Shown: positions 1,100 through 28,466 of the stretch, piece after piece
Numbering within the stretch: position 1 is the stretch's first letter
How the letters are laid out: each line of letters opens with the position of its first letter
Source of the DNA: an uncultured Clostridia bacterium
GTDB lineage: Bacteria > Bacillota > Clostridia > Christensenellales > UBA1242
Assembly (NCBI GenBank): GCA_944384495.1
Contig: CALWTP010000063.1
Coordinates: 1-41,212 of the forward strand
DNA length: 41,212 nucleotides
Direction: 5' to 3'
Position numbers and translations under genes: made by a program
The notes under the pieces: generated by a model
The model's input: only the letters and a program-made list of their open reading frames with translations
What the model was told of the DNA's origin: nothing
Databases searched by the model: none

Positions 1100-1273
1100 T
1101 TAAAATTTTCGGAAAATCGTTTTCATATCACGTTGGACTTTTTCGTCTTGTAATAACTCTTGAACGGCCTTATCAATTTGCATTTCCATCTCTTTGGATT
1201 GTTTTTGTCTAGGCGCACAATAAGCTATTATATCCGCGATAAATTCATCCCTTTTATTCATTTTCATTTTCAT
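1100..1273 (-). CDS. Small hypothetical protein (about 53-57 aa), apparently translationally coupled to the upstream 196-aa gene
   Basis: The track ORF 1100-1321 overlaps the upstream gene. In-frame ATGs at 1273, 1267 and 1261 lie on the TAA stop (1254-1256) of that gene (MKMKMNKRDEFIADII...). Which ATG is used is ambiguous, and there is no clear Shine-Dalgarno site. Confidence 0.4.
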   Translation of the reverse strand: MKMKMNKRDEFIADIIAYCAPRQKQSKEMEMQIDKAVQELLQDEKVQRDMKTIFRKF

Positions 1274-1844
1274 TCTCAAGACTATCAAATGCACGATCCA
1301 TCTCACTTGAGCGGTCATCATGCTTTATTTTTTCAGCACAGGCAGCAAGATCGCTCGATATAAGCTCTCTTATGTTTGAAGTGATAGATGTATCTCTTTC
1401 TCTATATTTGAGATTAAATGCATTGTTGTGACAAATTCTTTTGTAATATGTTTGAAAGAAAGTTGTCACCTCTTCTGCTGTTTCAATACCAAGATCAGCG
1501 AAAAGCTGACCAACTTTTGCAACCATTTTTGAATATTCTTTCATATCCTTCAATAAAGTATGTTTTTCTCTAGCTCGAGGTGAAAGTGCTTGAGGTTTAA
1601 TTTGATAGCGAGCCATAATCCCATCATAAATTTTAAAATAAGTGTTAAGATCAAAAAGGGTGGCAATCAGCTCATTTATTTTATCATCTAATGCATCCGA
1701 TTTTATAATAGCTGTAATTTTTGCAAGCAGTTCTGGGTTGGCGTCAGGCGAAAAATATCCTGCATGATTAGTTTTTTGTGTCTCCTCTATAATTTGATTG
1801 ATTGTTTGATCTCGATTTTTTTTGTCATTGTACCATTTGCTCAT
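1254..1844 (-). CDS. Hypothetical helical protein (about 196 aa), no family recognised
   Basis: The track ORF starts at 1856, but codons 1-3 (ATGGAGGAA) themselves form a GGAGG Shine-Dalgarno site 7 nt upstream of the second ATG (1844, MSKWYNDKK...). I therefore prefer 1844. The acidic tail ..ENENENE is encoded by a GAAAAT-type hexamer run. Confidence 0.7.
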   Translation of the reverse strand: MSKWYNDKKNRDQTINQIIEETQKTNHAGYFSPDANPELLAKITAIIKSDALDDKINELIATLFDLNTYFKIYDGIMARYQIKPQALSPRAREKHTLLKDMKEYSKMVAKVGQLFADLGIETAEEVTTFFQTYYKRICHNNAFNLKYRERDTSITSNIRELISSDLAACAEKIKHDDRSSEMDRAFDSLENENENE

Positions 1845-1879
1845 AAGTTCCTCCATTTAAGCTTAATTTATACCGTTTA

Positions 1880-1907
1880 AGTATACCATTTAAAATCAAA
1901 ATGTCAA
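1880..1907 (-). promoter_or_regulatory. Sigma-A type promoter (extended -10) for the 1844-1100 unit
   Basis: Minus strand reads TTGACA (1907-1902), a 16-nt spacer, then TGgTATACT (-10 at 1885-1880). It overlaps a direct repeat TTAAATGGTATA / TTAAACGGTATA (plus-strand 1869-1893). Confidence 0.55.
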
Positions 1908-2322
1908 GGGGGTTTTGGAAATAAATTGAATGAAATTTTAAGATTTTTTTGTAGATATATAATATATGCGATAATTATAGAAAAATATACAATAAAATAA
2001 GGCTTAAACGATAAAAAATAATTTAAAATTTATTATTTAAATAAAATTAAAATTAATATTATTTTTTTTTATTAAAAAACTTATTTATCATAAATTTATA
2101 TTATTCGTCATCCAAAAAAAATACCCCTAAAAACATCAATTTAATTCCTTTAAATTTCAGCCTTTAAGGGTATTTTCATAATATTAATTTGTTTAATTTA
2201 TTTTTTCTCCAAGAAGAAAAATTTGATAATTTAATATTATTTTTTATATTAAAAATTAAAAAAGAAAATTATTTTTTGTAAAACCTTTATTTCCTAATGA
2301 TTTTTGTAATATTTTCCATTTT

Positions 2323-4056
2323 TTATTGCCTTAATTTTATATGAAGCTCACGAAGTTGTTTTTCATCTGCTTCAATTGGCCCGCCCATGAGCAGATCTTG
2401 CGCTTTGCTGTTCATTGGGAAAGGCACTACATCTCGGATGTTTGTTATCCCTCTCATAAGCATAATCATACGTTCAAATCCAGGAGCGATACCTGCATGT
2501 GGAGGAACACCATATTGGAAAGCTGTGTAAAGCGCACCAAATCTTTTGATAATTTCCTCTTCACTGTATCCAACAATATTAAATAATTTTATCATTATAT
2601 CCTTATTGATGTTTCGTACAGCACCAGATGCCATTTCATAGCCATTTGCGACAAGGTCATACTGATAAGCAACCACATCCAGCGGATTCACAGTGCTCAG
2701 GGTTTCGAGATCACACTTAGGCATATTGAAAGGATTATGGCAAAACTCTATTTTTCCCTCATCGTCAAGCTCAAACATAGGGAAGTCGACTATCCAGCAA
2801 AATTCAACTCGTGTCTTGTCGATAATATCAAGTTTTGCTCCAACCTCATTTCTTAAAATACCAGCAAGTTTATAGCATTTTTTTGCGTCAATATCTGCAA
2901 TGACAAAGATGTCATCGCCAATTTTAGCATTGGTTTTTTTGATTAAATCCTGAGATTCTTGTTCTGTTATAAACTTAACAATAGGCCCTTTAAGAGTTCC
3001 GTCTTCCAGTACTCTGACCCAGGCCAGCCCTCCCGCACCTTCGTTTAACATTAAGTTTTGCAGTCTTTCATAGAAGGCACGCGATTGTCCCTTTGGATTT
3101 ATTGCAAAGCCTTCAATTGTCTTATCTTTAAAGGCTCCAAAAGTGGTATCCTTAAACACATCTTCAAGACCAACCATTTCAATTGGGTTTCTTAAGTCTG
3201 GCTTATCTGAGCCATACTTCACCATCGCCTCTTTGTAAGGTATACGCCTAAATGGTCCCTTGTTGTATGGAAACAGGCTGAACTTGTCAAAGAGATGAGC
3301 AACCAGTTTTTCAACCGTGCCAAGCACGTCATCTTGGGTTGCGAAACTCATTTCCATATCGATTTGATAAAAGTCGCCAGCAAGTCTGTCTGCACGAGGG
3401 TCTTCATCTCTAAAACAAGGAGCAATTTGGAAATATTTATCCACGCCTCCGCACATCAAAAGCTGTTTAAACTGTTGCGGTGCTTGAGGGAGGGCATAAA
3501 ATTTGCCTTTATGAACTCGGCTTGGAACAAGATAGTCTCTCGCACCTTCTGGACTTGGCACTGTAAGGATAGGGGTGTTTACCTCAGTAAATCCAAGGCC
3601 TCGCAAAAAAGATCGGGTGGCAAAAGCGACATCATCACGTAGCGCAAGCATATTTTGCATCTTTTCATTTCGAAGGTCGAGATATCTATATTTAAGCCTT
3701 AACTCCTCACTGACCTTCATACTATCCTCAATTTCAAAAGGCAGGACATTTTTAGCCTTTGATATGATCGTCAACTTTTCAACCGCGACCTCCACTTTCC
3801 CAGATTTTAAAGCGGGATTTATGGTATCATTTGCCCTAAGAACCACTTTGCCTTTTACAGAAATAACACTTTCTCTGGAAAGAGTGGCAAGCATGGTATC
3901 GTCATGCGTGGTGAGCTGGACTAAGTCTGTTTTATCTCTTAAATCGATAAAGACAATTCCGCCGTGATCACGGATAGTTTTTACCCAGCCGGCAAGCTCC
4001 ACCGTTTGTCCAACAAGAGCCTCATCCACATTTTCAAGTAGCATTGTTCTATACAT
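2323..4056 (-). CDS. aspS: Aspartyl-tRNA synthetase (bacterial type, 577 aa)
   Basis: Class II aaRS hallmarks: N-terminal OB fold (..LAGWVKTIRDHGGIVFIDLRD..), FRDED motif 2 region, GGPIEADE.. C-terminus. GGAG Shine-Dalgarno site lies 10 nt after the gatB stop. Confidence 0.95.
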   Translation of the reverse strand: MYRTMLLENVDEALVGQTVELAGWVKTIRDHGGIVFIDLRDKTDLVQLTTHDDTMLATLSRESVISVKGKVVLRANDTINPALKSGKVEVAVEKLTIISKAKNVLPFEIEDSMKVSEELRLKYRYLDLRNEKMQNMLALRDDVAFATRSFLRGLGFTEVNTPILTVPSPEGARDYLVPSRVHKGKFYALPQAPQQFKQLLMCGGVDKYFQIAPCFRDEDPRADRLAGDFYQIDMEMSFATQDDVLGTVEKLVAHLFDKFSLFPYNKGPFRRIPYKEAMVKYGSDKPDLRNPIEMVGLEDVFKDTTFGAFKDKTIEGFAINPKGQSRAFYERLQNLMLNEGAGGLAWVRVLEDGTLKGPIVKFITEQESQDLIKKTNAKIGDDIFVIADIDAKKCYKLAGILRNEVGAKLDIIDKTRVEFCWIVDFPMFELDDEGKIEFCHNPFNMPKCDLETLSTVNPLDVVAYQYDLVANGYEMASGAVRNINKDIMIKLFNIVGYSEEEIIKRFGALYTAFQYGVPPHAGIAPGFERMIMLMRGITNIRDVVPFPMNSKAQDLLMGGPIEADEKQLRELHIKLRQ

Positions 4057-5488: not shown

Positions 5489-6908
5489 CTCGCTCTTCTT
5501 CTAGGAATTTGGCAAGATTGTAGATTGTTTTTTCATTAAACTTTCTTGCCATCAGTTGCACACCTAAAGGCATCCCATGCTCTCCCTTTCCAAAAGGAAT
5601 GGATAGAGATGGTATTCCCACAATATTGGCAGTAACCGTAAAGATATCTTCCTTATATGTGTCAACAGGATTATCTGATTTACTGCCAATCTTATAGGCT
5701 TCTGCCAGGGTGGTTGGCATGATGATAATATCACAGCTTTCAAAAGCCCTATTAAATTGTTTGATAAGTTCACCTTGAATTCTCTTGGCTTTTTTATAAT
5801 AAGCATCGTAGTAGCCAGACGATAAGACATAATTTCCAAGCATAATCCTTCGCTTAACCTCTTTTCCAAAGCCCTCACTTCTGGACATTTTGTAAATTTC
5901 ATCTAGATTTTTGGCATTCTTTGCCCTTGATGTATACTTGACCCCATCAAATCTGGCAAGATTGCTAGTTGCCTCTGCTGGGGCGATGATATAATAGACT
6001 GGCAGGGCGATATCAATATTTGGAAGAGATATATCAACAATTTCAATCTCTTTTGATTTTAACCACTTTACAAAATTCTTTAAATTTTCTTCGCAAGGGA
6101 GACCCTTTGCAAGGTTTAAGATTTCCTTTGGCAGGCCAACTTTGATCTTTTTACATGACCAGTCGCCATTTGTATAGTCATCAACTGCCACTTTAGCGCA
6201 CGTCATATCATTTTTGTCTTCGCCAGCCAAAACCTCGAGCATAAGAGCATTGTCATAAACATTTTTAGAGAATATTCCCACCTGGTCAAGTGAGCTTGCA
6301 AATGCCACCACACCATAGCGAGAAATTCTGCCATAACTTGGCTTTAATCCATATATTCCGCAGTAGCTTGCCGGCTGACGCACACTGCCACCAGTTTCAG
6401 TGCCAAGTGCAATCGGGCACATATCAAGCGCGACTGCCGCACTGCTCCCGCCAGACGAACCGCCTGGTACTCTGTCAAAGTCAAGAGGGTTATGAGTAAT
6501 GCCGAATGCTGAATTTTCGGTAGAGCTTCCCATTGCAAATTCGTCCATGTTGGCTCTTGCAATGATAACCGCTCCCGCCTGCAAAAGCTTATCAATAACC
6601 GTTGCATTGTATTGAGCGACATAATCTTTTAAAAATTCAGAGCCACAGCTACAGATTTTGCCCTCATAGAGGATGTTATCTTTTATAATAATTGGCACTC
6701 CTGCCAACTTTCCCTTAAAACCATTTTTAATCTTTTCGTCCATTGTTTTTGCCTGAAGGATGGCATCATCAAAGACTTCCAAAACAGCATTATATTTTTG
6801 ATTTTTGTTGATTTGATCAATAAACGCTGTGGTCACTTCTTCAGAAGAAAGTTCTCCAGACAATATCTTTTCACGAATTTCTAAGGCTGATAATTTTATA
6901 ATTTCCAT
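5481..6908 (-). CDS. gatA: Asp/Glu-tRNA amidotransferase subunit A (amidase family)
   Basis: Amidase signature GGSSGGSSAAVA. The track start (6941) overlaps gatC. I prefer ATG 6908 (MEIIKLSALEIREKI...), which has a GGAGTG Shine-Dalgarno site and lies 2 nt after the gatC TGA. Confidence 0.95.
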   Translation of the reverse strand: MEIIKLSALEIREKILSGELSSEEVTTAFIDQINKNQKYNAVLEVFDDAILQAKTMDEKIKNGFKGKLAGVPIIIKDNILYEGKICSCGSEFLKDYVAQYNATVIDKLLQAGAVIIARANMDEFAMGSSTENSAFGITHNPLDFDRVPGGSSGGSSAAVALDMCPIALGTETGGSVRQPASYCGIYGLKPSYGRISRYGVVAFASSLDQVGIFSKNVYDNALMLEVLAGEDKNDMTCAKVAVDDYTNGDWSCKKIKVGLPKEILNLAKGLPCEENLKNFVKWLKSKEIEIVDISLPNIDIALPVYYIIAPAEATSNLARFDGVKYTSRAKNAKNLDEIYKMSRSEGFGKEVKRRIMLGNYVLSSGYYDAYYKKAKRIQGELIKQFNRAFESCDIIIMPTTLAEAYKIGSKSDNPVDTYKEDIFTVTANIVGIPSLSIPFGKGEHGMPLGVQLMARKFNEKTIYNLAKFLEEERGE

Positions 6909-6910
6909 AA

Positions 6911-7186
6911 TCACTCCATAATTCTTGGTACAACAATGCAATCCTGTTTGACAAGAGGCGAGTCTTTAAGCAATATCTCAGTTGGTGTGCTTTTGCCAAT
7001 TTCATCATCACGCAACTTGCCCAGATCAATTGTCTGTATGTTTTGTTCGCCTTGAAGATCTGCATTTTTGACAATGTCAGCAAATTCAACAAGATGTTCA
7101 AATTCTTTTGAAAAGCTCTCCATCTCTTCTGGTGAAAATTCAAGTTTTGACAGCTGTGCCAAATGTTCAATTTCCTTAATATCCAT
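6911..7186 (-). CDS. gatC: Asp/Glu-tRNA amidotransferase subunit C
   Basis: 91 aa, typical GatC opening (I..LA.LS.L.F..EE...F). It is the first gene of the gatCAB operon, with a GGGAGGA Shine-Dalgarno site upstream. Confidence 0.9.
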   Translation of the reverse strand: MDIKEIEHLAQLSKLEFSPEEMESFSKEFEHLVEFADIVKNADLQGEQNIQTIDLGKLRDDEIGKSTPTEILLKDSPLVKQDCIVVPRIME

Positions 7187-7204
7187 TATATCCTCCCAGT
7201 CTAT

Positions 7205-7244
7205 AAAAAATAAAAACCACAGTCCGTTTTATAGGAGGCTGTAG
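7205..7244 (-). terminator. Intrinsic terminator hairpin inside the gatC 5' leader (candidate attenuator)
   Basis: Minus-sense RNA reads CUACAGCC-(11-nt loop)-GG(A)CUGUGG, followed by UUUUUAUUUUUU. It ends 18 nt before the gatC ATG. One pair is G.U on the minus sense but a C/A mismatch on the plus sense, which argues for function on the minus strand. Confidence 0.55.
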
Positions 7245-7336
7245 TTTTTTATATAAACAAACAAGCCCCATTAAATGTGGTTCAAATTATTATTGCAATT
7301 AACAACGATTGTAAACATAGACTTTTCCTTTGGAAA

Positions 7337-7365
7337 AATATATCATATAATCATTTAAAAGTCAA
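7337..7365 (-). promoter_or_regulatory. Sigma-A type promoter (extended -10) for gatCAB-aspS
   Basis: Minus strand reads TTGACT (7365-7360), a 17-nt spacer ending in TG, then TATATT (7342-7337). This predicts a leader of roughly 145 nt. Confidence 0.55.
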
Positions 7366-7582
7366 CTGATTGAAAAGCATTTAAGATATTTCCTTATTTT
7401 AAAAATGCAGGTTGTTAAGTGGCAATTGTAATTTTAGTAAAATTCCTAAATTATTTTTTTTGCATCTAGTTAAAAAAATCCATAACCAAGAAATTGTTTG
7501 AAAATATATAAAAATTCAAGATTTTTGACAAAAAAGATCGATATTTTGAAAAAAAAATTAAAATTAATACTTTTAAATAATT

Positions 7583-7610
7583 TTGTAAATACCTTTCTTT
7601 ATGCTAAAAT
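7583..7610 (+). promoter_or_regulatory. Sigma-A type promoter (extended -10) directly abutting the SDR start codon
   Basis: TTGTAA (7583-7588), a 16-nt spacer, then TGcTAAAAT (-10 at 7605-7610). Only 6 nt separate the -10 from ATG 7617, and no Shine-Dalgarno site is present. Confidence 0.5.
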
Positions 7611-7616
7611 AGACAA

Positions 7617-8405
7617 ATGAAAAAGCTTGATAAAGTTGTCGTTATCACTGGAATTTCGGGCGGGATAGGCCAAAGGACTGCAGAATATCTATATCAGAGA
7701 GGTTGCAGAATTTATGGTATTATGAGAAGCGATTTTCAAAATGAAAAATACTTTTGTTATAAAGCGGATGTAAATGACCATAAGAGGATTGAGGAAATTT
7801 TTGAGGATATTTACCAAAAAGAAAAACGCATAGATGTGCTAATCAACAATGCTGGGTTTGGAATTGCAGGAGCAATCGAAAATGCACCAAAAGACAAAGT
7901 CTATCAGATTATCGACACAAATCTCGCATCTGCAATAACCGTAACGCAAGCATCGATAAAATACTTAAAAGAAAGCAGGGGAAATATTATCACAATATCA
8001 TCACTTGGCGGGGTGATCCCGTTGCCATATCAAGCTTGCTATAGTGCAACAAAGGCGGGAATAGAAATTTTTTCAAGAGCACTCGATGGCGAGGTAAAAC
8101 GATATGGAATTAAAACCACGGTAATATTGCCAGGTGATTTAAAAACGGGGTTTACAAATTCAAGGCAAAAGTATCTTGATCGAGGTAAATCGGTTTATGA
8201 AGAGCGGTCGATAAGAAAAATGGAAAATTTTGAGAACAAAGGCAAAGATCCAATTGTTGTCAGCAAAGCTATTTTCAAAATAATAAAACAAAAACGACCG
8301 CCACTACGAAAGACAATAGGCTTCGGAAATAAAATTTTGGTGTTTGCCACTCGGATTTTGCCAACAAGACTTATCAATTATTTAGTAAGAAACATTTATT
8401 GTTAG
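7617..8405 (+). CDS. Classical short-chain dehydrogenase/reductase (262 aa); candidate 3-keto-sphinganine-type reductase
   Basis: TGISGGIG cofactor motif (TGxxxGxG), NNAG, and a Ser...YSATK catalytic triad. The SDR family call is confident. The substrate call is inferred from operon context only. Confidence 0.85.
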   Translation: MKKLDKVVVITGISGGIGQRTAEYLYQRGCRIYGIMRSDFQNEKYFCYKADVNDHKRIEEIFEDIYQKEKRIDVLINNAGFGIAGAIENAPKDKVYQIIDTNLASAITVTQASIKYLKESRGNIITISSLGGVIPLPYQACYSATKAGIEIFSRALDGEVKRYGIKTTVILPGDLKTGFTNSRQKYLDRGKSVYEERSIRKMENFENKGKDPIVVSKAIFKIIKQKRPPLRKTIGFGNKILVFATRILPTRLINYLVRNIYC

Positions 8406-8415
8406 GAGGAACAAA

Positions 8416-9597
8416 ATGGATCTATTTGAAAAAACAAAAGGCGAGCATATCTATGATATGGCAAAAGAGAAGGGAATCTATCCATATTTCCACAAACTTA
8501 CCACAGGCCAGGATGTTGTTGTGGATATCGAGGGCAAAAACACGATTATGATAGGCTCCAACAACTATCTGGGATTGACATCACATCAAGAGGTTAAAGA
8601 GGCAGCAAAAAAGGCTATAGACAAGTATGGCTCGGGATGCTCAGGCTCAAGGTTTTTAAACGGCACACTTGACCTTCATGTGGAGCTTGAAAATGAGCTT
8701 GCACGATTTTTAAAGAAGGACAAGGTTATTACATTTAGCACGGGCTTTCAGGCAAATCTTGGAGTTATAAGTGCAATAGCAGGGCGAGGAGATTTTATCC
8801 TGTGCGACAAAGAAAATCATGCCAGCATCTATGATGGATGTCGTTTGAGCTATGCAAAGCTGTTGAGATATGAGCATAGTGACATGGAAGACCTTGAGAG
8901 AAAATTGAAGCTAGTGCCAGAGGATAATGGCATTTTAATCGTGACTGATGGTGTTTTCTCGATGGGAGGAGACATCTGCAAATTGCCAGAAATAGTAAAG
9001 CTTGCCAAAAAATATGGAGCAAGAATTATGGTAGATGATGCTCATGCGCTTGGCGTACTTGGCAAACATGGCAGAGGTACAGCGGAGTATTTTGGACTTG
9101 AGGATGATGTTGACATATATATGGGAACCTTTTCAAAATCACTGGCATCACTTGGTGGTTATATTGCGTCAAGTGCAAGGGTTATTGATTATATCACCCA
9201 CACCTCAAGGCCATATATTTTCAGTGCGAGCATGACCCCGGCATCAGTTGCAAGTGCTTTGACTGCGCTAAGGATCTTAGAACGTGAGCCTGAACGAATG
9301 GAAGCATTAAAAAACATTTCTTCATATATGCGTGAAGGACTCAAAAAGATGGGAATACAGATTATTGAGAGTCAAACTCCAATAATTCCAATCTATACCT
9401 ATGATGATGAAAAAGCTTTTATGGCCTGCAAGCTCTTACTTGATAGAGGTGTCTATGTAAATCCTGTTGTTTCTCCAGCAACTCCGGTTGGAAAGGCGCT
9501 CATTCGAACAAGTTATACAGCGACTCACACCAAAGAGCAAATGGACACAGCTATGGCAAAAATTCAAGAAGTAATGAAAATATTGGAAATCATATAG
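8416..9597 (+). CDS. PLP-dependent alpha-oxoamine synthase, serine palmitoyltransferase-like (393 aa)
   Basis: SNNYLGL, NHASIYDG, DDAHALG and the PLP-lysine motif GTFSKSLASLGG. From memory the FSKS-type motif resembles bacterial Spt, whereas E. coli Kbl has GTLGKALGG. AGGAGGA Shine-Dalgarno site lies 10 nt after the SDR stop. Family membership is confident; the acyl and amino-acid substrates are inference. Confidence 0.85.
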   Translation: MDLFEKTKGEHIYDMAKEKGIYPYFHKLTTGQDVVVDIEGKNTIMIGSNNYLGLTSHQEVKEAAKKAIDKYGSGCSGSRFLNGTLDLHVELENELARFLKKDKVITFSTGFQANLGVISAIAGRGDFILCDKENHASIYDGCRLSYAKLLRYEHSDMEDLERKLKLVPEDNGILIVTDGVFSMGGDICKLPEIVKLAKKYGARIMVDDAHALGVLGKHGRGTAEYFGLEDDVDIYMGTFSKSLASLGGYIASSARVIDYITHTSRPYIFSASMTPASVASALTALRILEREPERMEALKNISSYMREGLKKMGIQIIESQTPIIPIYTYDDEKAFMACKLLLDRGVYVNPVVSPATPVGKALIRTSYTATHTKEQMDTAMAKIQEVMKILEII

Positions 9598-9605
9598 AAA
9601 TAAAA

Positions 9606-9638
9606 ATAGAACAAACAGATGTTTTTGTTCTATTTTTT
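9606..9638 (+). terminator. Rho-independent terminator of the SDR-Spt-like operon
   Basis: Perfect 10-bp stem ATAGAACAAA / TTTGTTCTAT with an 8-nt loop, followed by T5. Confidence 0.8.
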
Positions 9639-9645
9639 AAAATTT

Positions 9646-9721
9646 TGGTCGAGGTGATGGGATTTGAACCCATGGCCTTACGGTCCCGAACCGTACGCGC
9701 TAGCCCCTGCGCTACACCTCG
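9646..9721 (-). tRNA. tRNA-Pro (anticodon CGG), 76 nt with encoded CCA
   Basis: Hand-folded cloverleaf. Acceptor CGAGGUG/CACCUCG, D stem GCGC/GCGC, anticodon stem UACGG/CCGUA with loop UUCGGGA (CGG, G37). T arm AUGGG-UUCAAAU-CCCAU, discriminator A, then CCA. Confidence 0.9.
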
Positions 9722-12472: not shown

Positions 12473-15400
12473 ATGAAGGGAAAAATCTTAACCATATTGG
12501 CGCTAGTTGTACTTTCTTTAGTAGCAATGACAGCCTGTTCGGGAAGGCCAAGCAAGAGTGGCGAATTTAAAAGTGATACATATGTTCTCTCTATTGGAGA
12601 CAGCATAGATCTTTATAATGAAATTACGATGAAAAATGGCGAGAAGAGTGATGTCGCCATCTCTTTATCCAATGGCAATCTGTCTTTATCCAGCGATAAC
12701 ACCTTTGAAGCGGTGAAGAGCGGACAGACAATTGCTTTTGCAAATTACAATGGTCAAAGCTTTGCGCAGTGTAAAATAATAATTCGCTATAAATTTTCCG
12801 CTCCTTCCAATATATCAGTGGACGAAAATGGAAACATCACTTGGAATCGCTCGTTCGCGATGATAGAAGGGCAGGAAGTCTTTGCCACCGATTATACTCT
12901 TTCAATTGCCAATGTGACAGGTTTAGAGCAAATTGATTATGATTCAATTATATTTGAAGAGATTGAGGTTGGCGAAAGCTATCAAATTTCGCAACCGGGA
13001 TCTTATTGTGTTAAGCTTATGGCAAATGCTATTGAAAATGACAACATAGACAGCTCACAACAAAGCAAAATGGTTGTTTTGAATTATAAGGTGATGGGAA
13101 GAGTTGAAAATTTAAATATTTTGCCATCAAGCTTTAGCGGTAATCAAAGCTCCACGATTTCTTGGGATGAAAAAGAAAACGCAATATACAACATCTATGC
13201 CGAGGGATTTTTGATTGAGGAAAATTTAGAAGGCAATTCTTTTGATTATGATTTTTCATTTTTACAGGCTGGCGAAAGTGTGCCGTTTATGGTTGTGGCC
13301 ATTGACAAGAATGGAATATTTTTAGAAACCAACACATCATTCACTGTGACTGGACTTGAAACTCCAGCGCCTGTATATAGCAATGATACTGAGGGCTTTA
13401 TATCATGGCAAAGTGTTGAAAATGCATCGACATATCTTTTTAATTTTATAAGTTTAGATGATGCAACCGTTCAACAATCTTTTGTTGTTCAGTCGGGGCA
13501 AAATAGCAATCAAGTGTTCGACTCTTTGCCAAGTGGAAATTATAGGCTTTATGCAAGCGCGCAAGCATCAGTAAGTCAGGGTCAGCTATATAGTACGAGT
13601 ACTTTATCTGAAGTGCAATATTATACAAAACTCAATACCCCGCAATCAACCGTCACCTTTGACGGAAAAACATTAAACGTGGACATTGAAGAGGACTCTT
13701 ACAACAAAAATTATAAGGCCACCATCGAGGATAGAGTGTTCTATTTTTCAAGTAACCAGTTTTCGATAGACCTTGATGGTTTCGATTTGGGATTGCACAC
13801 TTTGTCCATCACAGCTTTGCCAAATCCTGGGCAGATGATTATTGTAAATCAGGACCAGACTTCAAACCCGTTAAATTCAAACCCGTTTACTTTTGATTTC
13901 TATATTTTGGATACACTTGGGGAAATTCATCATAGTCTTGACCAAGAGCGCAACATTTCAATATTCTCCCTTTCCACAATAGAAAATGCAAACTATTATA
14001 AGCTGTACATAAACGATATACTTTTTGACATCGAGCCTTATATTGAGAACAACATTGTTTCTTTCACAGTTGAAAATCTGAATCAAATACAACCAAGTCT
14101 TTCTGGATATGAGATAATGGTGACCGCCGGAAATAATATAGATGGAATTGAGTATGCGCCCCTTTCAACTACCACAAAAACGCTTGAAATTTTGCCTTTG
14201 GTTCAAAAAAGCACATCAGAACAAAATGGCTATTATATATGGGACAATCTGGACCAAATTTACCAAGATCGTTTTGAAGAAGAGGTATCGTATTACTATG
14301 AAATTTTCAAGTCAAACAAAGATTATACCAACATCGAAGAGCCAAGTGTGCAATCGGGCTGGACCATGGATGGCAAAAATCAAAACGCGTTAGAGTTTGG
14401 TTATTACATCATCCACATATATGCTCATTCAAATGATACAAATTTATATCTTGACAATACTTTCCACGACAAGGAGAACTTCTTTACCGGCGAATTTTTT
14501 GTGACCGAGCAAATCGCCACACCAACCGCAGTTTTGACTCGAGATGGGGAGTTTAAAGACAATTATTATCTTTCCATATCCACAGTAGAATATGGTGGCG
14601 GATATGTGGTCTATGTTGACGGTGAGTTTGACGGGCAAATAGAGGTGAACAGTGATACGTCAGTTGCGACTTATACTTTTTCAAATACTTTTGAAAAGGT
14701 AAAAAATTATGATATTGCCTTGATTGCAACAAGTGGCTCACGCTTTGACGGGCAACTTCATTTAAACTCAGAAGAGTATCATTTAAATATAGAAAAATTG
14801 CCACAGCCGACCTTCTCCTATCGAGAGGCTTATGACGATTATGGGACAAAAATTAGGGAAGATTTGACGATTGCATCTATTTCAAATCTGCAACAGATAA
14901 AAATCAAAATTGATGATGTGATTGTAAATGCTTCTTCAAACAATACCATAGATTTATACTCATACGACAACGAATTTACTCTTAATCTTCAATACATAGC
15001 AATAGATGGTGGCGACAATCAATTCTATATAAACAGTGATGAGCGGATAGTTGAGTTTTACAGAACCACAGCACCGTCCAACATGCACTTCTCGGACGGA
15101 ATATTAAGCTGGGATGGTCAAGACACAAACATAGCAGACTATTATCTCTCAATCATACTTACAAATCAGCAAAATGGGAATTCATATTATTCATTCTTCC
15201 TAGGGAATACTCTAAATAGTTTTAATCTTCAGACAAAAATCAATCAATTACTTGATACAAATGCTTTATTTGCAACAAGCTATAGAATGGCGGACAGTGT
15301 GGACATCAAGCTCTATGCCTATGCATTACCAGTTGACGATAGTCAGAATGCTTTCTATATTTCATCACAATATGGCACAACACAGGCAAATCAAACTTAT

Positions 15401-18400
15401 CTTTCTTTGACCACTTTGGAAGCTCCAAATCTCAGTTTTAATAGTGCCACGAGGACACTAAGCTGGAATGATGTTGGACAAAATACATATTATGACATCT
15501 ATGTCGATGATGTATGCGTTGTAGAAGGATATAGAGGCAGTGTACTAGCTTCTGAAAATATGATAAGCATAAACCTTGACAGCTTGGGAGATATTGATTG
15601 GCAAAATAGAAAGGAGGTTGTGGTAAAGACTGTAAATCCAAGTTATCTCGACTCGGAAGATTCAAATGTTATATACATAAAACAGTTGGCGCCAATACTA
15701 AATCTCAATATTTCATCCGCCCAAAATCAGTATCAGGCCTCGTTTAATATAACAACTGACATTGAATACATCAGCCATATTCTTTTAAATAATGAAATTG
15801 TCGCAAGTTACAACTCCTCGTCGGCGACAGGGAGTTTTGCCTTAGACGATCCTTCTGTAACCGTATTTGATTTACAGGTGTGTGCAAAAGACAACGGAAA
15901 TTACTACTACTTAGACTCTATCATCACAACTTTTGAACTTCATGATATAAACGAGAGTAATTTTGAATTGACACTTGATGGAGATATGCTTAAATGGACG
16001 CAATTAGACTCGCAAATCGTTGGACAGCCAGAAAACAAAATTAAGTATACACTTGTTATCACCAGTGGTGGAAAATCATATGATATCAGCACTTTTGATC
16101 TTGAATATTCCATTCAAGAGATAGAAGAGGCAATTGGTGAGGTATTGTCAGATACTGTCAATATAAAAGTGGTGGCAAATGTATTAAACTATACTTTCAC
16201 TCAAACCGATGGACAGGCAAGGGGATATTATGGTCAAAAAGAGAGCACCGAGGAGACAACAACCAAATTAAATAAAGTAGCACAAATAACTGTAAATTAT
16301 TTAGTTGATAGCACTCAAAGCCTAGACCTAGACAAATACTTAGAAAGTTACGCACAGCTTTCATGGAACGACGAATGGAGTTCTTATCAAAATGTGAAAT
16401 TTTTAATCAAAGTTTCAAATTCAAATTCTGTCTTGCTCGAAACAACGGTGGGACAAGTTGTCAGTCAGGATTACAGCCTTTCACTGCAAGACGGAATTTA
16501 CACATTAAGGCTAAATAAAGCTTTAATATCGGCAATAAATACCACTGTTGAGATCACTGTTATAGTGCAGGGGAATATAAATTCTCAGCCAACTTCTGTG
16601 ACTATCAGCAGGTTAAATAGCATAGCAGAGGCTTCGGTTGATGGTGATGGCATTTTGACAGTAGACGTAAGTGAAACACAGGATTTAATAGGAGAGGGAA
16701 TCAATTTACTGCTTGAGTTGAGACTGGGACAAGATATAGTAAATTATACCTTCAGTGCTCAACAACAGCTTAATTTAAACAGTGAAGAACTTGGTCTCCT
16801 TTACGGCAAATATGGAGCATATTCGATAAGAATTATTGCAATTGATCAAAATAATCGAGTTTTACCATCTGGTGATGCATATATGATTACGGGGAACAAA
16901 CTTCAAGGTATAGATCAGCTGATAATCAATCAAAGCGGTGATATAGAGATAACTGTGATTGCCGATGATCTTTCTGACATTGTTTTCCATGCGAAAACCA
17001 TGGTAGGAGCAAATGAAGTTATAAAGACTTTCTTACCAGATCAAAATGAAAGTAGCAATGTTTATACGATATCAATGCTGGAAATGCTCGAACTTTTCTT
17101 TAATGATGCTGATGGTACAAGTGGATATTTATTTGAACAAATTTATAACTTTGAAATTACGGTGAGTAAGTCAGACTCGGTGACAGCGGACTGGAAAGAA
17201 ATCTCTTTTGGCTATAAATTTGAATCATTGCAAAATCAAGCAAAGATACTTAGATCAAACGATCTAAGTCGTGATTACATCATAATCGGTGCCCTTGCGG
17301 ATAGCATCTTGAATGATCCAACACGTGCCCTAATCGTCAGCATAAGAGATGGGTCCACCGTGACAAACATTAAATTGAATTCACTTATGTTAATCTTGCT
17401 TCGTGGTTATTGGAAAACAACATCACAGCAAGATAAGGGGACATTTGTAACCACACAAGGTAATGATGGAGCAACATATACTCCTTGTTATGGAGTTTGT
17501 TTAAATGACATTCTCGACGACTACTTGCCAGAGTTTGATTATGGTAATTTTGAAGTTGAAATCTCACGCATTAGCAATGAAAATAGTACCTATTATCAAT
17601 ATAATCAAACTTCGTTTGAAGTAAAACGATTAAATGAAATTATAAATCTTGAGATATATGACAATGTTCTATCTTGGCAGTGGATTAAGCCTGCAGATTT
17701 TATGGCAGACCCAACATTCCAAGCAGTCTCATATTATGTGGTTATTGATCAGATTACTAATGATGGTCTTTCAAATGTAAAAAAGCTTCTTGTAAATTCA
17801 GCATCTCTTGATTTAAGAGGGGTGAATGAAATTATTCCAGGAAACAGATATCAAATTTCTGTGATAGCTTTGCCAAATGCCGATAATCAAACCGTGATAA
17901 GCTCGAAGGCTGTTGTTTATGGCAGTGAAGTCTATAAATATGCCACCCCTATTTCACTTGAGGTAAAGGATGGAAAAATAACATTTAATGCCGAGCAGTT
18001 TGAAACCAGCGCATTTATTCAAGATTTAAAGGATTATTTTGGAGAAGAAGATCCAAGCATTTCAGGTAAAACTGAGCTTTACCAAATCGTAGGTGCAAAA
18101 ACATATTACCAGCCTATAGAATTTCTCGCGAGTACATTGTTAAATCAGCGGGTTGTTTTGAGATTTATTCTGCGCGATGGAAATAGTGATACCAATACAC
18201 ACTATGATGTTGAACTTTTTGCATATCAATTGTTCCCAGATATAGAAATATTAAATGCGGATAACGTCATAGCCACAGATGAATTACATTCGTATTTTGA
18301 TCTTTTAAATTCCTATTTAAATACTAGTCGAATCGACCAATCCGTACCAGAGGGAAGAGAAACTGTAAATTTAATAGAGACGTTGTTATCTTCCTATAGA

Positions 18401-21400
18401 GGCATATCTGGCGATACTGCCCTGTTTGATGATTTTGGTAGGCAAATTCCAACAGGGATATATTCTGTAGCAATTTTTCAAACTGAGCCAAGTGGTTATC
18501 AGACACGAGAATACATAGACTCTCAGCTTTCAAATTCGGTTGTCATGTTTGTCAACCCTGCACCAAGTGTTGAATTGGAGGTAAATAATCGGGATATTGA
18601 TAGTGAAACAAATAAGAATTTTTATGAGGCCGTTGTTAATGTAGGGCAAATTTATGTCTTTGATGAAGCAAGCAGTTCCTATATAAAACGCGATGCAACT
18701 TATTATAAAATGTTAATGCGAACCAATTACCAAGAAGGAATTAAGGATTATAGTAACGATTCGGTATTGGAGTTTGATATACAATATATCAGCGATCAAT
18801 GGCTCATTTATTATAATGATGTACTCGTAGAAAATGTGATTACCACATATTCTAGCAGTAATTTTACAATAAATTTTACATTACTTCGCGACAAATTGCC
18901 GGAAATTTTAGAAGAGTATTTGGAGTGGAGAAATGTGGAGTGGCGAATTGATCTCTATGTATATACTGCTGACAGCTCTTTGATAATAGATGAAACTGAC
19001 GGGAATAATTTGACTTATGGATCACTTAATGGCAAAAGTGCGACCATCAACTTAACTTACCTGGATCTGCTGGAGACAAGTGTAAATTTCACAGATGGAA
19101 GACTTTGCGTAACGATAGACCAGGGAAGAGATAATCAGGACTCATTGCTTGTAAAATATTACTCTTCTGGTAGTGGCGAGTTAAACAAAATATATCAAAT
19201 TACTTCGAGCAATGTCTACATTGACATGGACAATTCTGGATTGTATAGTTATATCATCCTTTCAATAAATGGATCAATTTCTTATAATACAATGCGTGTT
19301 GAAAGCCAGTCATATGCGATAGCGAATAGTTATAAGCTCAACAGTCCACAGCTTTCAATATCGAACAATGATTTGTATGTAAGTATAAATTCTGTGGATC
19401 AGACTTATCATGATGATTTGCACTATTTACTCGCTAATGACCTATCATTACAAAATGGAGATGGCTATTATTACACAAGTGCAAGAGTCGAGAATACCTA
19501 TATTTTAACAAGAATTGGCCAAAATGATGAAAGTGAATTGCGGGCGGGTAGTTTTTATGTATATCTTTTAGGTAACTCTGGAAATTTTGTGTTATCCACC
19601 GATACAACCAGCACAATTCCTGGCGGTGCGGACAATCTCCTTATTTTCCAGAACACTTCAACAAGTTTAACAGCCAAAGGATATCCAATTTTCTCTTCAG
19701 ATACAGCCAGCATTAATGCAAGGATGCTACACAACATAGAAAACGATCCTTTTGTATCCAGTGGTGGAATATCTTGGGAAGTCGATAATGATCAGTTGTT
19801 AGAAGAAGATGCGGTAAACTTATATCAAATTGACATCGAATATTATACCAGATTGCAAGACGAATATGAATTAAGCCGAACGGAAACACTATATACAACT
19901 GCTACAAGTTTAAATCATACATACCTTAATGAAGCTTATCAATATTATAAAGTGTTTGTCACAGCACTAGCAGGCAGAGTGGCAACAAGCACACTTGCAA
20001 ATATAACAACAATTGAAGGAGAAACTTACAATATCCTTCAGCCAAGAAGTTATCAGGATGGCAGTTATGTTTTAAGAGGGTTGAAGCTTTCGGCAACAAA
20101 TGGGTATCTGCAGAGAACAATGACTCCTGTACTATTGACAAATATGACAGGAATCAGTGGAGATACAATTGAGTTCTATATAGATGCCAGAGTTTATAAC
20201 AATGATATAAATAATACAAATAGGACTATAACAGATGAAAATAATGCAAGTGCCAGCGAGAGGATTCTCATTCAGGCCAGATATTTCAGTGGTAGCAGTG
20301 AAGTCTTGGAAAGCCTAGAAGGTTCGTTTATATTTAGTAGTGACACGCATATTGATACCACAGGCCTTATAAAAGTTGAGTTTGTATTAAGTCCGGGACA
20401 ATTAAATATAACAAATATGTTTGATATTGAAATCAGGAACTATATATCAAACGACAGCACTGCTCTTTTGATGTCGAGCGGACTTGTGATAGAGAATGTC
20501 ACAAAACTGCAACCAATGCTCGAACAGTACTATTCTATTGGCATACAGCAAGAAGGACAAGATTATATATCATATATTGATTTTAGCAATTACTTTGAAA
20601 GCGTGATGATTGCATCGAGCAATACGATGTACAGTATAATAGTAAAAATCACCACAACAAGTGGCGAAGAGGTCGAATATCAAATAACGCACCAGGACAA
20701 CAAGCAACTGCCAATATATGAGACCTATCAGTCTATTCAGATCCAAATTGTTGACAATCAGGAGGCAACACTAGTTGGCAGAAGATTGCTGTTAAACAGC
20801 GACATAACGACTTTCAATATTTCACCGACTCAAATAGGCGATGGCGATGGCGCTTGGCTTGAAATTGAGTGGGATGAGGATAATAGCATGTTCCGTTGGA
20901 GCTGGAATGAAGAGTCAGTTTTTGGCAACAATTATCAATACTATTTCAATATCATAATTGACGGGCGACAGACTAGTGGCATAATTGAAAATAGTTATTA
21001 TTTGCCTGTTCAAGGCGGTACAGACAACGAAATCACATCATTCTATATTCAAGCCCGTCAGATCAATCAGGCAGATAATACAATATATCTATTTAGTGAC
21101 AGTGTCAATTATCAGTTTGACAGCGGAAACATAACATATAACCTGTTTGCCGGCGGACAAGGTACTATCTCGTCACCATATCTGATTGCAAATGCCAGTC
21201 AATTTATTCAAATTTACAAGAGGAATTTTGAGGGGCAAGAGGTTTATTATCGTTTGACAAATAATATTGATTTGACTGACGAACTGATATTTATGCAAGC
21301 AGAAGAAGAGGTTGATTTTAGGGAAAAAGTCAAGGTCTTCTATGGAAACATAGATGGTAATGGAAATACAATCACAATTTCCGCTAGCGATTTTCTGGTG

Positions 21401-22531: not shown

Positions 22532-23419
22532 ATGAAAAAGATTTTTGCACTTTTTTGTCTATTGTTTTTGCTATTTCCTATAGTGTCCAGCAATAAAATA
22601 AACCTTGCATCCGATGGAGAGACACAAGAGACTGGGGCGGATGATATTATAATGTTATCACTTTCCTCGTCAAGCACACCTGTGCAGAGCATTGCGTTTT
22701 CGATAAGTGGCGAGCTGTGTGACAGGGCAGGATTAAATGCATTACAAAGAAGTGAATTTATTGATTGCTTGCTTCAAAAAATAGATCATTTAAGAACGGA
22801 ATTTTTATTAAGCCTTTCTTTAAAATATCTTCAAAATCCAATTGAGCAGTATAAAATCAACAAGGGAGTAACTCTCACTGCAGTTTCATATAATGACAAT
22901 TCGTCTTTGATTGGCTTTAGCATTATTTATGACAGCCATACCTCTTTCAATTATTACAATTCCTCTTCCTCTTCAAGTAGAGACACACAACGAGGCAACT
23001 ATTTTATTAAAAAATATATATCACAAGGGAAGTTTCCGTTTTCAAGTCAATTTGCAGGTAAAAATACAACCATAGGTCAGCGCTATAAGGAGATATTCCT
23101 ATCAGCAGCAGAAGGCAAGGATTATTATCAAGCAATATCGCAAAATTATAGTCCTAAATTTGTTTATGATTATGCTGTGGTCAACGACAAGTTGAAATCC
23201 AATGCAAACATCATCACAAAGAGTGCGGAGCAGACACATCATATATGGATTGTGGATGAGCAAAATTTGACAAACGCAAACGATATACAATTAAGCCTTA
23301 CAATGGTCAATAGAGGTGCTTGGTATTTGACTGCTTTGATTGTTGTGATGGCGGTCACTATAATCTATATTTTTATAGAATTTAAAATTAGATCAAAATT
23401 AAAAAAAACAAAAAAATAA
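22532..23419 (+). CDS. Hypothetical type-I membrane protein (295 aa): signal peptide plus C-terminal TM anchor
   Basis: N-terminus MKKIFALFCLLFLLFPIVSS. C-terminal helix WYLTALIVVMAVTIIYIFI is followed by KIRSKLKKTKK. No family recognised and the Shine-Dalgarno site is weak. Confidence 0.7.
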   Translation: MKKIFALFCLLFLLFPIVSSNKINLASDGETQETGADDIIMLSLSSSSTPVQSIAFSISGELCDRAGLNALQRSEFIDCLLQKIDHLRTEFLLSLSLKYLQNPIEQYKINKGVTLTAVSYNDNSSLIGFSIIYDSHTSFNYYNSSSSSSRDTQRGNYFIKKYISQGKFPFSSQFAGKNTTIGQRYKEIFLSAAEGKDYYQAISQNYSPKFVYDYAVVNDKLKSNANIITKSAEQTHHIWIVDEQNLTNANDIQLSLTMVNRGAWYLTALIVVMAVTIIYIFIEFKIRSKLKKTKK

Positions 23420-27494: not shown

Positions 27495-28466
27495 ATGGCC
27501 AAAAATAAAGATAATCAATCGAATGGAAATGGCAAAAGATGGGTGACTTTTATTGCAATACTGGTTTTAATTGCAATAATCGTTGTTTTGATTGTCATTT
27601 TTATACCGGCAAATACTTCGGATGCAAAGAGAATACTAAATGATGTATCTTCTTCATCTTATCTTAATGACGAGGACGAAAAATCGGCTTATCAAACTGT
27701 GGGAGAAAAACTGAGTAGTAGCACAAAAAGTTATTATATGACAGAGTATAACGACATCTTACTTCTTTCAGAAGGGATAAGTGATGTATTGCAATTTTAT
27801 GACGACTATCTGGTTTTTGCCAAAGATAACAAGGTTTTATCTTCCAACTACAAGACCATTCGAAACAATTTAAATCGAGTGAAGTCTTCCAAAGAGGATT
27901 TAAACGAATTGGTGGCGACCGTCAACAGCCTTGAAGAGGACAGCGATTCATATGTTAAAAATCTTTGGATTGATTTTAGAGGTGAGTATGTGAATTGGCT
28001 TGAGAGCAATGCGAAGGCCATCTCCGCTTTGAATAATTGCTATCAGGGATGTTTTGACAATACTCTCTCAAACAACTTAGCCTCTTCTACTATTTTAACA
28101 ACTGTTGATAATTATCTGACTTCAATCATAAACAAATTCAATGCCATTATCGACGTTGACAAGAAAAACACTTTGGATGATGTTTATTCATATTCGATTT
28201 CTGGGCAAATTCTTGGGTTCAGCAGATTTGTGAACTCCTATATTGTGGATACCACTGATATAGTTTGCTATAATTTTGAAACGACATATCAAGGGAAATA
28301 CAATTTGATAAATCAGTTCTGCGAAACCTTTGCAGAGAGTGATTTCATTGTGCTTATCGATTCTATGGATGCAGAGGGCAATATCACCAAAACATATGAA
28401 ACGACAGATATGCAGACCACAATTTTTGAGATAACAAAATCGTTTATAGAGGCAAAGGAGGGTTAA
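27495..28466 (+). CDS. Hypothetical membrane-anchored protein (323 aa, N-terminal TM helix, helical ectodomain)
   Basis: Signal-anchor WVTFIAILVLIAIIVVLIVIFI. GGAGGG Shine-Dalgarno site, 9 nt after the dnaB stop. No family recognised. Confidence 0.7.
   Translation: MAKNKDNQSNGNGKRWVTFIAILVLIAIIVVLIVIFIPANTSDAKRILNDVSSSSYLNDEDEKSAYQTVGEKLSSSTKSYYMTEYNDILLLSEGISDVLQFYDDYLVFAKDNKVLSSNYKTIRNNLNRVKSSKEDLNELVATVNSLEEDSDSYVKNLWIDFRGEYVNWLESNAKAISALNNCYQGCFDNTLSNNLASSTILTTVDNYLTSIINKFNAIIDVDKKNTLDDVYSYSISGQILGFSRFVNSYIVDTTDIVCYNFETTYQGKYNLINQFCETFAESDFIVLIDSMDAEGNITKTYETTDMQTTIFEITKSFIEAKEG

Follow-up and report, generated by a model that had tools for sequence, protein, structure and literature searches.

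A putative operon for sphingoid long-chain base synthesis in an uncultured Clostridia bacterium, and its counterparts across Bacillota

Here we examined a two-gene operon at positions 7617-9597 of a 41,212-nucleotide stretch of DNA from an uncultured Clostridia bacterium (contig CALWTP010000063.1, referred to below as the window), and we consider it probable, at roughly 0.7, that its two products make 3-ketosphinganine and reduce it to sphinganine. An earlier note on this DNA had proposed that the pair encodes a serine palmitoyltransferase (Spt; SPT in the names of characterised enzymes) and a 3-ketosphinganine reductase belonging to the classical short-chain dehydrogenases/reductases (SDRs). 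This reading gained support from the ranking of NCBIfam models, from the nearest neighbours of the synthase in the PDB and by fold, from a neighbour-joining (NJ) tree, from the serine at position 78 of the synthase and from KdsR as the best family of the SDR. The two genes are:

7617-8405, + strand: KdsR-like classical SDR gene, an open reading frame (ORF) of 262 amino acids (aa)
8416-9597, + strand: Spt-like alpha-oxoamine synthase gene, an ORF of 393 aa with K241 as the lysine that binds pyridoxal phosphate (PLP)

We propose that the operon would be self-contained for the de novo synthesis of sphingoid long-chain bases. The second gene would encode a soluble, homodimeric, PLP-dependent Spt of the Bacteroidota/delta-proteobacterial subgroup, which would catalyse the decarboxylative Claisen condensation of L-serine with a long-chain acyl thioester and so form 3-ketodihydrosphingosine. 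Our guess is that a Firmicute would more likely supply the acyl group on acyl carrier protein (ACP) than on CoA, because of what is known of Firmicute lipid metabolism and because a related enzyme from Alistipes uses acyl-ACP (PMC9304779). The product of the first gene would be a BT_0972/KdsR-type classical SDR located in the cytoplasm, reducing the C3 ketone with NADPH to dihydrosphingosine (sphinganine). The order of steps would be eukaryote-like, with the free keto base reduced before N-acylation. What the analysis shows is the family placement of both proteins, the conserved active site, the operon structure and the co-evolving linkage of the two genes across Bacillota; substrates, cofactor and product are what we infer.

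The synthase, its active site and the partner reductase

The synthase, a PLP enzyme of fold type I, matches PF00155 in Pfam (1.6e-63), and among the curated NCBIfam models its best family is an Spt model. The bit scores and cut-offs were:

NF047600 SerpalmtaseCFB (serine palmitoyltransferase, CFB type), the best family: 570.1 bits, cut-off 640
TIGR01825: 434 bits, cut-off 535
Beta-proteobacterial Spt model: 426 bits, cut-off 500
Kbl model NF005394: 422.8 bits, cut-off 460
Kbl model TIGR01822: 336.8 bits, cut-off 493
BioF model TIGR00858: 399.3 bits, cut-off 426.45
CqsA model: 228 bits, cut-off 428

NF047600 leads the next model by 136 bits. Sequence comparison with PDB entries gave 447 bits for the SPT of Sphingobacterium multivorum, 315 for the Thermus enzyme ThAOS and 313 for the SPT of Sphingomonas paucimobilis, with lower scores for Kbl (at most 286), the cysteate acyltransferase 28EH (246), BioF (at most 211), ALAS (at most 188) and CqsA (135). 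By BLASTP the synthase is 52.3% identical to S. multivorum SPT, 43% to ThAOS (a Thermus Kbl/BioF enzyme), 43% to S. paucimobilis SPT, 38% to Kbl of Escherichia coli and 31.6% to E. coli BioF. With an AlphaFold2 model of the synthase (pLDDT 82.6) as query, the top Foldseek matches were 8guh and 3a2b, both of them S. multivorum SPT (TM 0.92); the Alistipes cysteate transferase 7u7h, found in the same search, is 31% identical. Cysteate acyltransferase, CqsA and HemA were considered as identities for the synthase and rejected, their scores being far lower than those of Spt in the NCBIfam, PDB and Foldseek comparisons.

The earlier note had suggested placing the synthase by phylogeny. For this we used an NJ tree of 93 sequences: the window protein and the other named references, six in all, together with 20 homologues from Bacillota and 67 single-domain proteins, each representing a cluster formed at 50% identity. 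The Bacillota clade was monophyletic in 99 of 100 bootstraps, and in 76 of 100 it joined S. multivorum SPT with S. paucimobilis SPT, ThAOS, Kbl and BioF left outside. NF047600 was the best model for all ten of the nearest single-domain representatives that were scanned, at 440-625 bits and below its cut-off. Judged by sequence, the synthase is Spt-like and belongs with the Bacteroidota/delta-proteobacterial enzymes (in the division into subgroups of PMC9386255), where it forms its own lineage below the equivalog threshold. We treat it as a sister lineage of the Spt equivalogs, not as a certified member.

The PLP-lysine motif of the synthase, GTFSKSLASLGG, which includes K241, is identical in S. 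multivorum SPT. This region had previously been set against GTLGKALGG in E. coli Kbl, and both sequences read as described. H135, D207, H210 and K241 align with His138, Asp210, His213 and Lys244 of the S. multivorum enzyme, whose contacts with PLP and L-serine are listed in PMC10196870. Twelve of these 13 contacts are identical in the synthase (in S. multivorum numbering Asn52, Gly80, Ser81, His138, Ser185, Asp210, Ala212, His213, Thr241, Ser243, Lys244 and Phe272), the exception being Met271, a backbone contact, which is replaced by Ile; the 12 are conserved in 76-77 of the 77 clade members. The position of Val79 in ThAOS is occupied by Val in all Kbl enzymes and by Ser in SPT (PMC11906848). 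The synthase has Ser78 there, an invariant Ser in the clade, and the surrounding loop, GSRFLNGT, is the same as in both crystallised bacterial SPTs; the matching loop reads (A/S)VRxIxGT in Kbl and GSGHVSGY in BioF.

The SDR belongs to PF00106 (adh_short, 4.8e-42) and carries all the motifs noted before, TGISGGIG at residue 11, NNAG at residue 77 and YSATK at residue 142, together with the catalytic residues N102, S129, Y142 and K146. Its best NCBIfam family is NF049977, KdsR (3-ketodihydrosphingosine reductase), with a full-length alignment and 212.9 bits, about 22 bits above the 191 of the generic PRK06179 model. As the score is below the cut-off of 400, we treat it, too, as a sister lineage, here of the KdsR equivalogs, and not as a certified member. 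BT_0972, which belongs to the KdsR family, reduces 3-ketosphinganine, an activity seen by LC-MS when it was co-expressed with BtSPT in E. coli (PMC9278070). We also compared 32 Spt-adjacent SDRs from the related loci described below, and all 32 match KdsR with the top E-value among the families matched (best 6.5e-86); the window SDR, for which KdsR ranked first, was the sole member compared with the full family table. An Arg placed right after beta-strand 2 of an SDR fits a preference for NADP(H). Arg37 stands directly behind that strand in the window SDR and is nearly invariant among related SDRs, so that by these standard cofactor rules the enzyme would be expected to use NADP(H). An AlphaFold2 model of the SDR (pLDDT 91.8) had as its nearest folds 3m1a and 17beta-HSD1, the latter an NADP-dependent enzyme that acts on lipophilic substrates; these neighbours are compatible with the KdsR assignment but unspecific for it. 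No signal peptide was detected in the SDR, which suggests that the enzyme is cytoplasmic.

Linkage of the two genes across Bacillota and competing readings

A genome scan with Spt returned 114 relatives, from which the best 80 were kept as loci, all of them in metagenome-assembled genomes (MAGs). These best 80 represent at least 80 MAG species, their Spt proteins are 63-78% identical to the window synthase, and their taxon labels are Clostridia, Clostridiales, Christensenellaceae, Oscillospiraceae, Mogibacterium, Bacilli and Acholeplasmataceae. A protein search yielded more than 8000 relatives of the synthase at E <1e-50, some of them 89-100% identical. A KdsR-like SDR gene directly adjoins the Spt gene in 33 of the 80 loci, spread over several orders and in three arrangements: SDR followed by Spt, Spt followed by SDR, and divergent. 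The pairwise distances of Spt and SDR rise together (r = 0.81, with none of 999 Mantel permutations as high), and the two proteins co-evolve across Bacillota. Spt is far more constrained than its partner, with a mean p-distance of 0.31 versus 0.57. When all ORFs within 6 kb of Spt were clustered over the 80 loci, the KdsR-like SDR was the sole conserved neighbour. There was no recurrent kinase, and no genes for ACP, acyl-ACP synthetase, the bacterial ceramide synthase bCerS or the reductase CerR, nor tdh or bio genes, recurred near Spt. Carriers among the MAGs include OZ223250.1, a complete chromosome of an Acholeplasmataceae member, JBMNLZ010000001 and CAPMFN01. We found the pair in an Acholeplasmataceae chromosome as well (locus L072). 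Sphingolipids were reportedly described in Acholeplasma axanthum in the 1970s, which would fit the pair at this locus.

The earlier note had called such a finding in a low-GC genome unusual. This is true of the literature and does not hold for metagenomes, in which the pair is widespread among uncultured Bacillota. For such a pair the phylum is unexpected and, it seems, without earlier reports. We lean, with some reserve, towards the view that sphingoid-base synthesis is widespread among uncultured monoderm Bacillota and maintained there by vertical descent, and that it would run on a compact Spt-KdsR module.

Two Clostridia MAGs among the loci without an adjacent KdsR-like SDR (L003 at 6512-7750, and L005) have in its stead a 412-aa protein upstream of Spt, about 250 bp away in L005. 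This protein couples an SDR domain of another kind to an additional domain at its C-terminus, and it may stand in for the reductase without being its orthologue.

Several points weigh against sphingoid-base synthesis as the function of the operon. Both proteins fall short of the curated equivalog cut-offs, the synthase with 570 bits against the 640 of NF047600 and the SDR with 212.9 against the 400 of KdsR. The union of the synthase clade with S. multivorum SPT has only 76% bootstrap support, and the tree behind this value is a simple NJ one that contains few named references. SPT recognises the side chain of serine largely by way of water and the protein backbone (PMC10196870), and for that reason the conservation of residues is no proof of specificity for serine or for an acyl chain length. 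Forty-seven of the 80 loci are without an adjacent KdsR-like SDR, and the window and most related loci yielded no homologue of ceramide synthase, CerR, ACP or acyl-ACP synthetase. We also found no report of Spt or sphingolipids in Clostridia in the literature searched, and reviews limit bacterial sphingolipids to Bacteroidota, some Proteobacteria and a few Gram-positives.

The main rival draws on several of these points. It keeps the chemistry and changes the substrates: alanine, glycine, homoserine or cysteate in place of serine, or a short or unusual acyl chain, with reduction of the ketone then giving a non-canonical 2-amino-3-hydroxy lipid or a signalling molecule. The position of both proteins outside the curated equivalogs for Spt and KdsR would suit it, as would the scores of the ten nearest representatives, all under the NF047600 cut-off, the acceptance of Ala, Gly and homoserine by bacterial SPTs (PMC10196870), and the lack of downstream sphingolipid genes in the window and related loci. 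We nevertheless regard it as unlikely, for the clade shows no variation in any residue of the S. multivorum SPT substrate pocket. The characterised cysteate transferases stand much further off (28eh at 246 bits, 7u7h at 31% identity), CqsA reaches 228 bits against a cut-off of 428, and neither a cysteate synthase nor any other precursor gene is linked to the pair. Cysteate acyltransferase and Kbl, both named as alternatives in the earlier note, are disfavoured by their lower scores and by the absence of a linked cysteate synthase or tdh.

Threonine catabolism, with the synthase as glycine C-acetyltransferase (Kbl) and the SDR as threonine 3-dehydrogenase, appears very improbable. The synthase does reach 423 bits with NF005394, near the cut-off of 460, and shares 43% identity with the Thermus Kbl/BioF enzyme and 38% with E. 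coli Kbl. Against this, it remains below the cut-offs of the Kbl models and scores 147 bits less there than with the Spt model, it has an invariant Ser in place of the Kbl Val (PMC11906848), and its loop is GSRFLNGT, not (A/S)VRxIxGT. Its partner is a classical SDR of 262 aa with KdsR as the best family, and no tdh of either the Zn-dependent or the extended-SDR type is linked in any of the 80 loci.

A role in biotin synthesis, with the synthase as 8-amino-7-oxononanoate synthase (BioF) and an unrelated SDR beside it, is more improbable still. TIGR00858 gives 399 bits against a cut-off of 426, and BioF, too, carries Ser where ThAOS has Val79. The synthase is only 31.6% identical to E. coli BioF, though, the BioF loop GSGHVSGY differs, and the residue corresponding to Ser243 is Gly in BioF. 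A search for bio and tdh genes, as had been suggested, covered the window and the 80 loci and revealed none nearby: no bioA, bioB, bioD, bioW, bioC, bioH, tdh or cysteate synthase gene was present in the window or recurred in the loci, and the sole recurring neighbour is the KdsR-like SDR, which co-evolves with the synthase. Least credible is a chance neighbourhood of two functionally unlinked genes, for although SDR genes are very common and a KdsR-like SDR next to the synthase is missing from 47 of 80 loci, the same SDR subfamily adjoins Spt in the other 33 in three arrangements and several orders, the distances co-vary (r = 0.81, 0 of 999 permutations as high), and the 10-nt gap with a Shine-Dalgarno site overlapping the stop codon indicates co-translation.

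The relatives of the synthase include several fusion proteins. Three of them (P0273, P0278 and P0285, 44-51% identical to the window Spt) combine an N-terminal FemAB-like/Acetyltransf_6 (GNAT) part of about 400 aa with an alpha-oxoamine synthase domain, and P0278 ends in a C-terminal PilZ domain. They look like the acyltransferase-Spt fusions to be expected of a ceramide synthase joined to Spt. A tblastn search with the FemAB-like/GNAT domains of the Spt fusion proteins found nothing in the window. A separate GNAT protein of about 375 aa is encoded directly after the Spt-SDR pair in a Bacilli MAG (L012, 9989-11125, + strand) and another is encoded at 1241-2365 (- strand) of L030; the L012 protein is homologous (E ~1e-30) to residues 393-777 of P0268, a 777-aa Spt-like fusion. 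This GNAT is absent from the window and the 78 other loci and does not lie beside Spt in three other genomes checked, and it belongs to a large family (over 6500 hits) whose members are annotated as hypothetical or GNAT; it would be a weak candidate for the missing N-acyltransferase. A further protein of 654 aa (P0283) joins an Spt-like domain, 49% identical to the window Spt, to a C-terminal DUF1571.

Locus layout, expression signals and surroundings

The two-gene operon with a 10-nt gap and an AGGAGGA site, as first described, was recovered with both ORFs and the site in place. The other features of the locus are:

7583-7610, + strand: promoter-like site, TTGTAA, a 16-nt spacer and TAAAAT with a TG extension (consensus scan, 9 of 12 matches)
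8404-8410, + strand: Shine-Dalgarno site AGGAGGA of the synthase gene, overlapping the TAG stop codon of the SDR gene by 2 nt (read from the sequence)
9602-9637, + strand: A+T-rich hairpin followed by a T-run, the probable intrinsic terminator of the operon (RNA folding)
9646-9721, - strand: tRNA-Pro(CGG) gene, convergent, just past the hairpin (Rfam)

Both protein genes are on the same strand, and the GGAGG core of the Shine-Dalgarno site ends 6 nt ahead of the synthase ATG. The overlap of this site with the SDR stop codon suggests translational coupling, and together with the 10-nt gap it points to co-translation of the SDR and the synthase. Ahead of the operon, 6 nt separate the end of an extended -10-like element (TGcTAAAAT) from the SDR ATG, and no Shine-Dalgarno sequence precedes this ATG in 7583-7617; because of these two features the operon transcript may be leaderless. 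Promoter-like sites in the region are not above chance (13 found against 10.1 expected), which makes the site at 7583-7610 a candidate only.

A strong terminator had been proposed behind the second gene. The hairpin and its T-run are there, with 14 bp, a folding energy of -12.2 kcal/mol and a z-score of -3.27 against shuffled sequences, and they probably form the intrinsic terminator that closes the operon. The word strong does not fit, since the hairpin is A+T-rich and was not called by a consensus scan for terminators of the G+C-rich type, having too few G-C pairs. An Rfam scan found the tRNA-Pro only, and no riboswitch ahead of the operon.

Upstream of the operon lie aspS and gatCAB on the - strand, and downstream ogt and a gene of the rluA family. 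Two small downstream ORFs are syntenic with genes of the closest relatives that encode YabP and Spore_YabQ Pfam domains. Further downstream come an ORF for a lipoprotein-like product of 3286 aa and then typA, dnaB, a class-I tRNA synthetase gene of the Glu/Gln type, tatD and ksgA. The spore-former-like, low-GC setting recognised in the earlier note agrees with the synteny to the YabP/Spore_YabQ genes and with the GC content of the window, 0.363. GC and GC3 (GC at third codon positions) are 0.36 and 0.31 for the SDR gene and 0.41 and 0.37 for the synthase gene, inside the range of the housekeeping neighbours. The nearest species, whose Spt is 89% identical, retains the SDR-Spt pair and the downstream synteny, with different genes upstream, and the operon is for this reason a stable part of the chromosome in this uncultured, low-GC, spore-forming Clostridium of the gut. 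Recent horizontal transfer was considered and is unsupported, given GC and GC3 values like those of aspS, gatCAB, typA and dnaB and the synteny kept in the nearest species.

The window also contains two giant ORFs on the + strand, one at 12473-22333 (3286 aa) and one from 35482 to the window end (more than 1900 aa, open at the edge). Both start with a signal peptide that ends in a lipobox-like Cys (…MTACSG… and …LAACGS…). The first has a counterpart of 3287 aa in the nearest species, and the products of three relatives are on record without a Pfam hit; within the second, a 72-bp tandem repeat at 39006-39164 (2.2 copies, 95% match) gives repeated protein segments. Pfam gave no hit for five ORFs of 200-344 aa (325-1044, 1254-1856, 22532-23419, 27495-28466 and 28468-29502), and those among them that were scanned against NCBIfam matched nothing there; two of the five lie directly after dnaB.

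Implications and comparison with known systems

Sphingolipids that Bacteroidota make in the gut pass into host tissues and influence both immunity and lipid metabolism (PMC9278070, PMC10191378). If the trait proposed here is real, it would span gut and rumen Clostridia (labelled Christensenellales, Oscillospiraceae and Mogibacterium/Anaerovoracaceae) as well as Acholeplasmataceae, and Bacteroidota would not be the sole major source of bacterial sphingolipids in the gut. If many gut and rumen Clostridia make sphingoid bases, surveys that use a Bacteroidota Spt marker would undercount bacterial producers. The close relative MBO5022501.1 is invisible to pathway annotation because its NCBI name is the generic 'aminotransferase class I/II-fold PLP-dependent enzyme' only, and the NCBI name of an SDR relative is likewise generic. 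The operon also raises the question of what sphingoid bases would do in a spore-forming monoderm without an outer membrane.

Whether bacteria reduce 3-ketosphinganine before or after N-acylation is a matter of argument (PMC11087976). In Caulobacter, acylation precedes the reduction by periplasmic CerR (PMC11087976), and a Bacteroides route through BT_0972 with the same two-step logic as in eukaryotes has been proposed (PMC9278070). The operon bears on this argument, with a BT_0972-type reductase physically and evolutionarily coupled to Spt in hosts that have no periplasm for a CerR-type reaction. If the proposed function is right, the tight linkage would be independent genomic support for the disputed route in which bacteria reduce first and acylate later.

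Among the known systems, the Kbl-Tdh pair resembles the operon in coupling a PLP-dependent alpha-oxoamine synthase to a dehydrogenase, and the synthase is 38-43% identical to Kbl enzymes; it differs in the Val that is Ser here, in the loop, in the sub-cut-off score and in the partner, which is not of the Tdh type. The sulfonolipid pathway (SulA/CapB, 7U7H and 28EH, with 3-ketocapnine reductase) is closer in logic, since an alpha-oxoamine synthase is followed by an SDR ketoreductase to give a sphingoid-like base. The window synthase is only 31% identical to 7u7h and scores 246 bits with 28eh against 447 with SPT, and no cysteate synthase is linked.

The Caulobacter-type route (Spt, AcpR, AasR, bCerS and CerR) has the same first step, the Spt condensation. 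Genes for ACP, acyl-ACP synthetase, the GNAT-type bCerS and the NDUFA9-like CerR are found neither in the window nor recurrently in the 80 loci (PMC11087976, PMC9386255). CerR of Caulobacter is a periplasmic extended SDR that acts on oxidised ceramide, whereas the window reductase is a predicted cytoplasmic classical SDR that should act before N-acylation. The eukaryotic enzymes, SPT and KDSR (Tsc10, FVT1), share with our proposal a condensation followed by reduction of the free 3-keto base; they are membrane-bound, with SPT built as a complex of different subunits (PMC11087976). Tsc10 and FVT1 are no more than distant relatives of the bacterial SDR; for the Bacteroides reductase candidates, identities of 16-30% to these proteins have been reported (PMC9278070).

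The closest parallels are bacterial. BT_0972, the KdsR of Bacteroides thetaiotaomicron, is similarly a classical SDR of about 265 aa with a Gly-rich NADP(H) motif and Ser-Tyr-Lys (PMC9278070). The window differs in that the reductase and Spt genes are adjacent and co-evolve. The locus tag of BT_0972 is, we presume, far from that of the Bacteroides Spt. S. multivorum SPT (3A2B, 8GUH) and the NF047600 family match the window synthase in being soluble, about 395 aa long and folded as alpha-oxoamine synthases, and members of the Bacteroidota/delta-proteobacterial Spt subgroup likewise have no dedicated ACP or acyl-ACP synthetase gene adjoining (PMC9386255). The window synthase departs from S. multivorum SPT in belonging to its own, 99%-supported Bacillota clade, in its host, a monoderm spore-former without an outer membrane, and in the joining of its gene with a reductase gene in one operon.

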